Position numbers and translations under genes: made by a program
The notes under the pieces: generated by a model
What the model saw: the letters and a program-made list of their open reading frames with translations, nothing else
Databases searched by the model: none
What the model was told of the DNA's origin: nothing
Source: Candidatus Thorarchaeota archaeon
GTDB taxonomy: Archaea > Asgardarchaeota > Thorarchaeia > Thorarchaeales > Thorarchaeaceae
Reading direction: 5' to 3'
NCBI GenBank assembly: GCA_046758445.1
Contig: JBHIAE010000063.1
Span: forward strand, 1 to 14,667
Length of the DNA: 14,667 nt
Shown: one piece after another, positions 7,660-10,005 of the stretch
Numbering within the stretch: position 1 is the first letter of the stretch
Layout: each line of letters starts with the position of its first letter

Positions 7660-8274
7660 TTGGATAATGTTGACAAACAGCTGGTATCACTACTCCAGAA
7701 GGATGGGCGTACCAGTCTCTCCGAGATTGGAAAGGAGCTGAAGATGTCCCACGTTGCGGTCAGCAAGCGTCTGGACAAGCTCGTCAAGAAGGACCTTGTT
7801 CACATTGGCGCAGGGGTGAACTCTGAGGACCTCGACATTAAGCTTCTCTTCATCGCGCTTGAGGTCGAGAGCTTGGACGTCGCAGAACGAATCTACAAGA
7901 AGTTCGGAAAATGCCCTCGCTTGTTGATGCTGGCGCCCGTCTCAGGCAGCTATAATATGATAGCCGTACTGGCGGCCGAGGATGCCTGGACGCTTCAGTC
8001 AATCACTGGCACATGTAGCGTACGAACCGAACCAGGCGTCAGACGATCCGAGAGTTGGTTTGGAAACTCACCTGTAGTCCCGAAGTATCTGCCAATCAAT
8101 CTTGCACCACACCGGGCCAGCGGTACCAAGGCACCCTGTAGACAAGACTGTGCGGCCTGCAAGCGATATCAAGAGGACAAGTGTGTGGGTTGTCCGACCA
8201 CTATCGCATATAGAGGCCGTCTATGGTCTTCACCGCTGACCAAGAGGAAACGTAGAGGAAAAGGCAAGAGTTAA
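7660..8274 (+). CDS. Lrp/AsnC family transcriptional regulator with C-terminal Cys cluster
   Basis: w[43 protein letters not shown]-like domain (SGSYNMI) and tail C-x3-C-x2-C-x7-C-x2-C. SD GGAGTG precedes a TTG start. Confidence 0.9.
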
Positions 8275-8300: not shown

Positions 8301-8900
8301 GTGAATCCCATGGATGACGTTTCCATTCACCCTCTGGCTGTTGTTGAAAAGGGAGCCCAGATCGGCAAGGGCACGCGAGTCTGGCACTTTGCACACATCA
8401 GAGGTTCGGCCAAGATAGGTGATGGATGTAACATTGGTAAGGACGTCTATGTCGACGCTGAAGTGACAATAGGAAACAATGTGAAGATACAGAATGGTGT
8501 GTCAGTCTATCATGGTGTCACAATTGAAGATGATGTCTTCTGTGGGCCTCACATGACCTTTACAAACGACCTGTATCCGCGTGCCTTCAGTGATTCATGG
8601 GAAGTGGGGGAGACACTGGTGAAGAGGGGAGCCTCGATTGGTGCTCACGCCACGGTTCTCTGCAACACGACACTTGGTGAGTACTGCATGGTGGGGAGCG
8701 GTGCGGTTGTCTCCAAAGACGTTCCAGCCTATGGGCTTGTGGTCGGAAACCCTGCACGACTTGTGGGATTCGTCTGCAGGTGCGGTCAACCCATCGACAA
8801 AGAAACAGGCCGCACCAGTGCGACTGTCACATTTCAATGCACGAAATGCAAAGAGAAGGTCACAATTCCCTTGTCTGACTACGAGAAGAAGATCAGGTAG
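8301..8900 (+). CDS. Hexapeptide-repeat (left-handed beta-helix) N-acetyltransferase, WbpD/WlbB-like, with C-terminal Zn ribbon
   Basis: [53 protein letters not shown], and CRCG...CTKC. True start may be ATG 8310. Confidence 0.88.
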
Positions 8901-9078
8901 AGACTAGCTACACCCGGGCCGTTTCCGAACTTGGTCATGTTGGCTGCATTATGACCGAGAAGTCTGCCCTCATCCTCAAAGGCCCATTCAATGCACAGGT
9001 CAAGGTCTTGACTGCTTGTGTTGGAGGATATCTCTAAAAGAACAGGGTCCACAGCAGGTCTTCAGCTTTTTCAGACTA

Positions 9079-9210
9079 CTACCCGAAGAACTCCCATCCA
9101 CAAGAGCCACACCGGAACTTCTTGCGCATTCCAGCTGGTGTCTGCTCCTGTCCCACATAGCGTGCGGTGCCACCACACCTTTCACATGGACGATATTCTT
9201 CAAGGCTCAT
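9079..9210 (-). CDS. 43-aa zinc-ribbon microprotein (CxxC-x21-CxxC), missed by the ORF track
   Basis: MSLEEYRPCERCGGTARYVGQEQTPAGMRKKFRCGSCGWEFFG. Perfect SD GGAGGT at 9219-9224 (8-nt spacer), tandem TAG TAG stops, canonical CxxCG...CxxCG knuckles. Confidence 0.85.
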   Translation of the reverse strand: MSLEEYRPCERCGGTARYVGQEQTPAGMRKKFRCGSCGWEFFG

Positions 9211-9450
9211 GAACAACGACCTCCGTGGTCACGTCGGGCAAGCCCTACAGATATGTATGCTCATTCTGATGATTTGAGTATGCCGACAGAACAGTCATGG
9301 GAGTCCCTGTGTGAATTGTTTCCTTATGACTTGACCAGACGTAGAAGAAGACCGGCGTGAAAATTGGAGCAGTTTCTTAGTACAGTCCTCTCTTATTTGG
9401 CACATTCTTATTTGTCGGACGGACACTGTAAGGAAGATGTGAGAGAAACT

Positions 9451-10005
9451 ATGTACCAAGGGAGATCGATTGCTGTATTGGGGTTGGTTTTGATGGGTCT
9501 TGTCCTGTCAACCCTGATTGTAGTCCCTGTGACGAGCTCTGAAGGAATGATTAGCGTCTCATTCACAATTGAACCTGGGACTACGTATGGTCCGTATGAC
9601 AATGGAACGGTCTATCACACTAGGATATTCGGCACTTCAGTTCTGATGGGTGAAGTCGTCATTGAGGGGCAAGGAATCTACTTGACCGTGAGCGGAGAGC
9701 ACACTCATCATCTCAAAGGTATCTATGTGAGTGCTCAGTACGAATTTGTGATTGACCCGGCTGAGGACCAGTATACGTTTACCTTCGACAACACAGACGG
9801 AATTGCCAACAGCTCTGTCAGATTCATACTGGAAGAAGCGTGGACAAGACCGGTGGCTCTCAGCTCCTCCGGGACATTCATCGCATGGTTTGGCGGAGTC
9901 CTTCTGTTTCTTGCAGGACTGATTGTCTTCACCGTCAATCGATTGAGGATGCGACTTGGACGCCGCTCCAACATTGAGCCCGTCAGAGTCCAGTCAGCAA
10001 ATTGA
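9451..10005 (+). CDS. Two-TM membrane protein with a beta-rich GOLD-like (emp24/gp25L/p24-like) ectodomain
   Basis: ATG 9451 gives MYQGRS followed by a hydrophobic helix, then a ~125-aa beta-rich domain containing DQYTFTFDN (like the GOLD Y-x-F-x-F-D-N motif), a C-terminal TM and a basic tail. The CDS is well supported; the family call is tentative. Confidence 0.6.
   Translation: MYQGRSIAVLGLVLMGLVLSTLIVVPVTSSEGMISVSFTIEPGTTYGPYDNGTVYHTRIFGTSVLMGEVVIEGQGIYLTVSGEHTHHLKGIYVSAQYEFVIDPAEDQYTFTFDNTDGIANSSVRFILEEAWTRPVALSSSGTFIAWFGGVLLFLAGLIVFTVNRLRMRLGRRSNIEPVRVQSAN

Follow-up and report, generated by a model that had tools for sequence, protein, structure and literature searches.

One-domain zinc-finger microproteins with regulatory phenotypes are established in Haloferax (PMC6562870, PMC10716476). 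The Soppa laboratory groups such proteins in the C(P)XCG class, in which neither the motif nor an AlphaFold2 (AF2) model predicts whether a given protein holds a metal (PMC11241148). The class is operational, not a homologous family. Its haloarchaeal members HVO_0758 and HVO_2753 (DUF7838) are less than 70 amino acids long and consist of a single ribbon domain with two C(P)XCG motifs. A larger ribbon protein, TFS4 of Sulfolobales, has two ribbons and a linker, with a shortened hairpin that carries K76-78 (PMC5715097); its N-ribbon and linker form a hydrophobic anchor on the jaw of RNA polymerase (RNAP), and the surface of its C-ribbon is strongly basic (PMC8448823). Here we analyze a 14,667-nt stretch of DNA from a Candidatus Thorarchaeota genome of 3.25 Mb and 49% GC (G000), hereafter the window, which encodes on its minus strand a 43-amino-acid Cys4 zinc-ribbon microprotein (P0001). 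The microprotein is a new and very narrow addition to the known archaeal one-domain zinc-ribbon microproteins.

By its length and its motifs CERCG and CGSCG, the microprotein falls in the C(P)XCG class; the clade formed by the orthologues of the YT5_051 genome (G014) and of locus L048 has CPRCG. With the haloarchaeal members it shares a length below 70 residues, a pair of C(P)XCG motifs and a single ribbon domain. It differs from them in belonging to another phylum and in scoring below the DUF7838 cut-off, and an exhaustive hidden Markov model (HMM) search of 1.84 billion representatives returned no homologue among them.

The 43-codon frame is a real gene under purifying selection, as three independent pairs of orthologues show. 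Between the window and the metagenome contig L036, which represents a relative at strain level, the frame has nine synonymous and no non-synonymous codon changes (non-synonymous divergence, dN, 0; synonymous divergence, dS, 0.44). The comparison of the window with genome SMTZ1-83 gives dN 0.075 and dS 0.55 (dN/dS 0.14), and that of G014 with L048 gives dN 0.11 and dS 1.84 (dN/dS 0.06). Codon differences between the orthologues are concentrated at third positions. A 114-codon frame that is open on the opposite strand is not the selected one, because substitutions that are silent in the microprotein frame alter many of its residues between the window and L036.

We considered whether the frame might be spurious, or what is left of a larger gene in decay, for example the N-terminus of a transposase. 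Its shortness, a sub-threshold similarity to transposase ribbons and its location at a break in synteny would all fit such an origin. The purifying selection in three independent pairs already contradicts it, start, stop and length are kept across five loci, the antisense frame is not conserved, and there is no transposase near the gene at any of the five loci and no insertion sequence (IS) ends nearby. We therefore give this explanation almost no credence.

The elements first pointed out by a reading of the sequence alone, namely a GGAGGT Shine-Dalgarno (SD) sequence, an ATG, a 43-codon frame and a double TAG, are all present on the minus strand at 9224-9076. Since an in-frame TGA lies 21 nt 5' of the ATG, the frame can be no longer than 49 codons. 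The GGAGG begins at -14, inside the peak of -15..-11 at which GGAGG/GAGG occurs before 1479 crudely called genes of the genome, so the position of the SD fits this genome. The sequence-only reading had called the SD perfect and had noted the double stop, both of which hold in the window and are not general: the SD is only GAGG in L036 and SMTZ1-83, the start codon is TTG in the G014/L048 clade, and SMTZ1-83 lacks the second TAG. Nor is the gene fully hidden, as had been claimed, since the SMTZ1-83 orthologue already has an NCBI annotation (hypothetical protein). In P0001, CERCG occupies residues 9-13 and CGSCG residues 34-38, which leaves 21 residues between the CxxC pairs. Across the whole genome, 17 ATG-started frames of 30-70 amino acids contain CxxC-x15-30-CxxC, compared with 3 and 6 in two Markov shuffles, and two CxxCG motifs occur in only 4 of the 17; such frames are thus rare and exceed what chance would give. 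A second 43-amino-acid frame of similar layout (CPRCGG ... CDKCG with a P-G hairpin turn) lies on the minus strand of contig C7 of the same genome; it was not retrieved as a homologue.

An AF2 model built from a four-sequence alignment predicts a confident zinc ribbon (predicted local distance difference test, pLDDT, 91.4), in agreement with the fold that had been read from the sequence. It has four strands (residues 6-8, 15-24, 27-34 and 40-42). Cysteines 9, 12, 34 and 37 form two knuckles in the model, and the protein would bind one metal ion, presumably zinc. Model and family alignment together show a long beta-hairpin (15-24 / 27-34) ending in an invariant T24-P25-x-G27 turn. Basic residues alternate along the return strand (R29, K31, R33) in a stripe that does not vary within the family; R11 is placed at the first knuckle, and further invariant residues lie near the termini: the aromatic Y6, W39 and F41, together with L3, E5 and E40, give exposed aromatic and acidic ends.

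Fold searches place this model among zinc ribbons in general. Foldseek, proposed as a check in the sequence-only reading, lists 1qyp (the C-domain of Thermococcus TFS) first, at E 0.2, followed by the NrdR ribbon and then Rpb9, TFIIS and A12.2; all matches have E 0.2 or worse. A fold search independent of Foldseek gives Z scores of 4.6 for NrdR, 4.3 for Dof (DNA-bound), 3.9 for a topoisomerase I ribbon, 3.8 for TFIIS, 3.7 for TFS and 3.6 for TFS4. Neighbours in a structure atlas are generic ribbons, including those of NrdR and IS transposases, and language-model neighbours include the DUF7838 and HVO_0758 clusters. Sequence searches of the PDB returned only coincidences resembling C2H2 linkers and rubredoxin knuckles.

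The best superposition is with the N-terminal ribbon of NrdR (PF22811), which is almost gapless over 37 residues with a root-mean-square deviation of 2.2-2.6; in both proteins, the return strand that leads to the second knuckle is basic. Unlike the microprotein, NrdR has an ATP-cone, and the microprotein has no PF22811 match at E up to 1. An nrdD gene lies about 3 kb from the microprotein gene in the window and is not near it at the other loci.

Profile searches gave a similar spread. Zn_ribbon_IS1595 (PF12760; cut-off 25.4 bits) matches all four family members, with scores of 16.6, 19.0, 25.0 and 20.8, and is the best curated profile across the four. NF050000 (IS1/IS1595 zinc-binding domain) reaches 13.7-13.8 bits against a cut-off of 28, and the PaaD profile up to 25.5 bits. 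DUF7838 (PF25208) scores 17.7-20.8 bits against 28.5; it is the sole profile that aligns over the whole length (residues 1-41) and also touches the genome's TFS gene, at 15.4 bits. With the N-terminal ribbons of IS1/IS1595 transposases the microprotein shares a CxxCG...CxxCG ribbon of similar length; it differs from them in its scores below cut-off and in standing alone, without a transposase domain. Other small ribbons of these genomes gather a similar spread of sub-threshold matches.

The nearest relative that we found is a family of 67-amino-acid ribbons (P0009) restricted to Thorarchaeota (for example, AM325_000625 of SMTZ1-45). Searched with the microprotein profile, 10 of the 28 genomes from another genus contain it (E 2e-6 to 4e-4). 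In an all-against-all hhalign comparison among Thorarchaeial ribbon families, the microprotein and the 67-amino-acid family align with a score of 50.6 (P 1.5e-11), the best of all ribbons tested, where unrelated ribbons give a background of 19-38; for the other pairs outside the microprotein family the range is 19-40.5, and the microprotein reaches 38.5 with Elf1. Besides their phylum, the two families share CxRCG, a hairpin that turns at [TR]-P-x-G, a hydrophobic residue, and the ending F/Y-basic-C-x-SCG-x-x-F-Y. The larger family differs in its N- and C-terminal extensions (with a YDRGYDDY tail), in a spacer of 22 rather than 21 residues, in just reaching NF050000 (28.6 bits against 28) and in its fixed synteny: its gene always lies between a class I methyltransferase gene and priL, which encodes the large subunit of DNA primase, 21 nt upstream of priL (L084 1447-1650, plus strand; syntenic loci L080-L088 and L092). 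It is annotated variously as hypothetical, 'transposase-like' or 'RpoP'. In the window genome the site between methyltransferase and priL is empty, without the 67-amino-acid gene. A methyltransferase also lies near the microprotein gene at L048; it is unrelated to the one beside the 67-amino-acid family.

An 84-amino-acid, Elf1-like zinc ribbon with a basic N-terminus (G000 C20:28506-28760, plus strand, the same as L021 1007-1261) occurs in many relatives and is the source of weak, recurrent tblastn matches with the microprotein. The profile NF011482 ('putative transcription elongation factor Elf1') gave only a weak match, to other ribbons.

The microprotein gene itself occurs at five loci: in the window, on L036 (with a partial copy on the metagenome contig L038), in SMTZ1-83, in G014 and in GCA_048882765. 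The possibility raised at the outset that the frame would have no conserved homologues is thereby set aside. Protein identity to P0001 is 100% for L036 and L038, 84% for SMTZ1-83, about 64-66% for G014 and 65% for GCA_048882765. A profile search of 87 Thorarchaeia species genomes found the family in two of them, the window genome and G014; outside this set it is present in two further assemblies and the two metagenome contigs. To the two genomes of the profile search the exhaustive HMM search adds one orthologue (P0004) and a marginal look-alike (P0008), the rest being repeat-protein artefacts: the long repeat proteins P0005-P0007 were rejected as summed low-complexity matches, and pattern matches to RadA and to a Leucobacter protein in bacteria as motif coincidences. 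The look-alike P0008 (49 amino acids, E 7e-4) comes from a Logan contig (SRR11793864) and resembles the microprotein in its first half (CPRCGG-x-ARYVG ... P-A-x-x-R-K-x-F); its 3.7-kb contig carries 13 small open reading frames (ORFs) on the same strand and has a virus-like look. A viral or plasmid origin of the microprotein gene was rejected: tblastn against phages returned only generic primase and polymerase ribbons at E about 0.1, and IMG/VR returned nothing.

Its surroundings change from locus to locus. In the window the gene is flanked by genes for a 213-amino-acid membrane protein and a hexapeptide transferase; a NUDIX-like gene replaces the membrane-protein gene in L036; and the neighbours are PAS kinases and TBP in SMTZ1-83, membrane proteins in G014, and KaiC/Rad51-like genes and the methyltransferase at L048. 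The gene that lies divergently upstream in the window is not related to its counterpart in G014. On the other side, a block of thyA, an AsnC-type helix-turn-helix (HTH) gene and the hexapeptide-transferase gene is syntenic throughout the genus and ends at about 8903, at the stop codon of the transferase gene; the closest species (G010, 87% nucleotide identity) has there a gene for an EF-2-like GTPase, not the microprotein gene and surface-protein region. Because the neighbours vary by locus and synteny breaks at about 8903, the microprotein gene is a patchy, accessory, stand-alone unit.

What might such a protein do? The sequence-only reading had aligned its QTPAG with the QTRAG in the C-ribbon of the transcript-cleavage factor TFS and proposed a TFS/TFS4-like modulator or inhibitor in the secondary channel of RNAP. 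The background it drew on is correct. Its version of the TFS motif matches the canonical TFS of this genome, whose C-ribbon reads C-P-K-C-G ... A-Y-Y-W ... Q-T-R-R-G-D-E ... F-Y-R-C, and QTR[RA][GA]DE is kept in all 30 Thorarchaeial TFS; TFS4, an inhibitor of RNAP, does have lysines in its shorter hairpin (PMC5715097). As had been noted, the D-E pair is absent from the microprotein and the spacer is 21 residues as against 24. Residue 23 varies within the family (Q, Q, T, R), which has the motif [QTR]-T-P-x-G without an acidic pair, and a proline stands where TFS has an invariant arginine.

Profile comparisons do not single out TFS. With TFIIS_C (PF01096), whose cut-off is 21 bits, P0001 scores 13.0 and no family member exceeds 15.5; this profile ranks below the IS1595, PaaD and DUF7838 profiles. 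A better match to a transposase ribbon had been named beforehand as a result that would refute the TFS reading, and this is what we see. TIGR01384 gives no match to the microprotein at E up to 1. When the whole genome was scanned with PF01096, the true TFS and one other ORF came up, and the microprotein did not. NF047723, the NCBIfam model of TFS4, has its cut-off at 120 bits and matches two members weakly, one at 18.6 bits (E 0.002) and one at 16 bits (E 0.013). The hhalign score against the Thorarchaeial TFS C-ribbon is 30.3, which lies within the background of unrelated pairs and below the score against Elf1.

In structure, the likeness to the C-ribbons of TFS, TFIIS and Rpb9 consists of a Cys4 ribbon with a long hairpin, A16, T24 and [FY]-R-C before the second knuckle, and a long-hairpin Cys4 ribbon is common to many other ribbon families. 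TFS4 (7oqy chain Y) superposes with a root-mean-square deviation of 2.0 over 36 residues and is comparable in the geometry of its shortened hairpin and basic triplet: the hairpin of the microprotein is three residues shorter than that of the genome's TFS, and its R29-K30-K31 starts two residues past the T-P-x-G turn, in a register that cannot be aligned residue by residue to K76-78. Unlike TFS4, the microprotein has neither an N-ribbon nor a linker to bind the jaw, and with seven basic and five acidic residues (net charge about +2) it is far less basic than the TFS4 C-ribbon surface. A co-fold of the microprotein with Zn and, of the RNAP subunits, Rpo1N alone (885 amino acids), run without controls, scored 0.00 and weighs neither way.

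One could still imagine the microprotein as a minimal, single-ribbon, TFS4-like factor that sits in the nucleoside triphosphate (NTP)-entry funnel of RNAP and uses its basic hairpin to inhibit or modulate transcription. The fold resemblance, the TFS4-like hairpin geometry and the weak TFS4-model matches would suit such a factor. The scores below the cut-offs and at background, the variable residue 23, the proline in place of the invariant arginine and the missing jaw anchor speak against it, and the genome already has a canonical TFS and a separate, more TFS-like and widely conserved mini-ribbon. We consider this explanation improbable. On the comparisons made, a tie of the microprotein to TFS or TFS4 is not specifically supported, and any CxxCG ribbon shows this degree of likeness to the C-ribbon of TFS. 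An accessory transcription brake in some Asgard archaea, TFS4-like with one ribbon and no N-terminal anchor and perhaps induced via the upstream element described below, would accordingly be a long shot.

The mini-ribbon in question is a single zinc ribbon of 56 amino acids encoded outside the window (G000 C70:2111-2239, minus strand, the same as L041 1489-1659, minus strand). It is present in 71 of 87 Thorarchaeia genomes and 14 of 17 genera, and its gene often shares a contig with tfs, at a distance of 9-14 kb. It scores 25 bits with TIGR01384 and 18 bits with PF01096; two relatives pass the PF01096 cut-off, at 22-23.5 bits. Its hhalign score to the TFS C-ribbon is 40.5. It keeps the ending C-x-x-C-x-x-T-W and has a glycine-rich hairpin tip in place of D-E. 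The 56-amino-acid mini-ribbon is a better candidate for a stand-alone TFS-C-like module than the microprotein. The comparison yields a useful negative, in that a resemblance of this strength is common to CxxCG ribbons, and the mini-ribbon is the better place to look for such a module.

The microprotein is a Cys4 zinc ribbon that stands alone, like the archaeal C(P)XCG proteins. Our own tentative preference is that it acts as a one-domain binding module, most likely for nucleic acid, with a regulatory role. The basic face of its hairpin would contact nucleic acid, and the protein may tune how a small, lineage-specific target is expressed; its own upstream control block is possibly part of that target. 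Transposase-type (IS1/IS1595), NrdR and Dof ribbons bind nucleic acid, and nucleic acid is the most likely ligand here because these, the closest profile and fold matches, use their ribbons in this way. The sequence-only reading had offered a new family of nucleic-acid-binding microproteins as its fallback; the first half stands, in that this is a new zinc-ribbon family without a curated match, and nucleic-acid binding would follow from the analogy with these ribbons.

Several observations weigh against this preference. The microprotein reaches no curated family, all profile matches being sub-threshold and generic, and the fold matches are tied within one Z unit and lie below the level of kinship. 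There is no conserved neighbour of the gene across the loci that would point to a target. The net charge is about +1 to +3, and lower if the Cys4-Zn centre is counted, which is weak for a DNA binder. In addition, 5 of 14 such Haloferax proteins are zinc-free (PMC11241148).

Because the net charge is so low, a protein partner is nearly as likely as nucleic acid. The ribbon might dock on an enzyme, a membrane complex or a regulator and modulate it, with no nucleic acid involved. The modest charge, the invariant exposed aromatic and acidic residues near the termini, and the patchy, accessory-like distribution with changing neighbours are all consistent with a protein-binding microprotein, and there are precedents for small archaeal proteins that modulate complexes, such as MtrR in Methanosarcina (PMC13370731). 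Neither a conserved neighbour nor a fused form of the microprotein was found to suggest a partner, and in both fold and profile the microprotein comes closest to ribbons that bind nucleic acid. We regard protein binding as possible, if on the whole unlikely.

A role in metal handling or redox chemistry, as a rubredoxin-like protein or a buffer for zinc, cobalt or nickel rather than a binder of macromolecules, would draw on the weak rubredoxin-knuckle matches to the second CxxCG and on the Haloferax C(P)XCG proteins that carry a metal other than zinc (PMC11241148). The knuckle matches are confined to some 10 residues at a single knuckle, the protein folds as a long-hairpin ribbon and not as a rubredoxin, and conservation reaches well past the cysteines. 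We think such a role very improbable. If the microprotein is made and binds a defined target, it would provide an Asgard example of the poorly understood class of one-domain zinc-ribbon microproteins. As it stands, the microprotein is a narrow, lineage-specific orphan without a functional handle, and it opens no long-standing question.

Three lineages, in which the silent sites of the adjacent ORF differ by dS 0.44-1.09, have in common a 30-nt block upstream of the gene with 100% identity. The spacer between block and ATG has diverged freely, like the silent sites of the microprotein ORF, and the breakpoint of the rearrangement in L036 falls exactly on the 5' edge of the block. The block contains no TATA-like hexamer. 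With up to three mismatches allowed, it occurs once in the genome, and the genus yielded no copy. No 8-mer upstream of the gene is richer in AT than ATACATAT, which sits just 3' of the block at -48..-41. Among the words enriched upstream of genes in the genome, TATA-like hexamers rank first; they peak at -60..-31, and the block lies just 5' of this peak. We infer that the 30-nt block acts as a regulatory site at the level of DNA, next to a weak TATA element. In the G014/L048 clade, the motif conserved upstream is a different one. As an unusually clean cis element, the block could serve to find its regulator.

Other readings of this region were considered and rejected. An RNA element is not indicated, because an Rfam search of 8800-9600 gave no match and there is no stable or covarying fold (leader fold z 0.14; a three-sequence consensus with one compensatory pair only). 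On the plus strand, a CUGAUGA-like word suggested a C/D-box RNA, for which D and D' boxes are missing. Upstream short frames of 17 and 11-13 codons encode proteins that are not conserved, and one of them is lost in L036.

Archaea are known to use oligo-T terminators, so a T-run downstream of the stop codon is read as a possible terminator. With its own upstream control region, SD, 43 codons and T-run, the locus is a self-contained small gene. The coordinates of its features are collected in the table.

Table. Features of the microprotein locus, in coordinates of the window; positions in brackets are relative to the ATG.
Feature	Position	Strand	Evidence and remarks
30-nt block, candidate operator or regulatory site proximal to the B recognition element (BRE)	9260..9289 (-79..-50)	-	Identical in window, L036 and SMTZ1-83; putative regulatory function
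CATACATAT, weak TATA-box candidate	9251..9259 (-49..-41)	-	AT-richest upstream stretch; partly conserved in L036 and SMTZ1-83; putative
Shine-Dalgarno GGAGGT	9219..9224	-	Sequence; 8-nt spacer to ATG at 9210-9208
Coding sequence of the 43-amino-acid Cys4 zinc-ribbon microprotein (P0001)	9079..9210	-	Translation, substitution pattern, AF2 fold; includes TAG stop at 9081-9079
Second TAG	9078-9076	-	Sequence; directly 3' of the first stop
T-run TTCTTTT, possible archaeal terminator	9036..9042	-	About 37 nt past the stop; conserved in L036 and L038; putative function
Antisense 114-codon open frame, judged not to be a gene	9016..9360	+	Overlaps the microprotein gene

Two other genes of the window encode proteins with cysteine-rich C-terminal regions. 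The hexapeptide-repeat acyltransferase (8301-8900, plus strand) has a zinc-ribbon-like tail, CxC...CxxC, at residues ~168-190, which is conserved in the genus. The AsnC/Lrp-type HTH regulator (7660-8274, plus strand) has a cysteine-rich C-terminal extension (C-x3-C-x2-C ... C-x2-C) and a basic tail.

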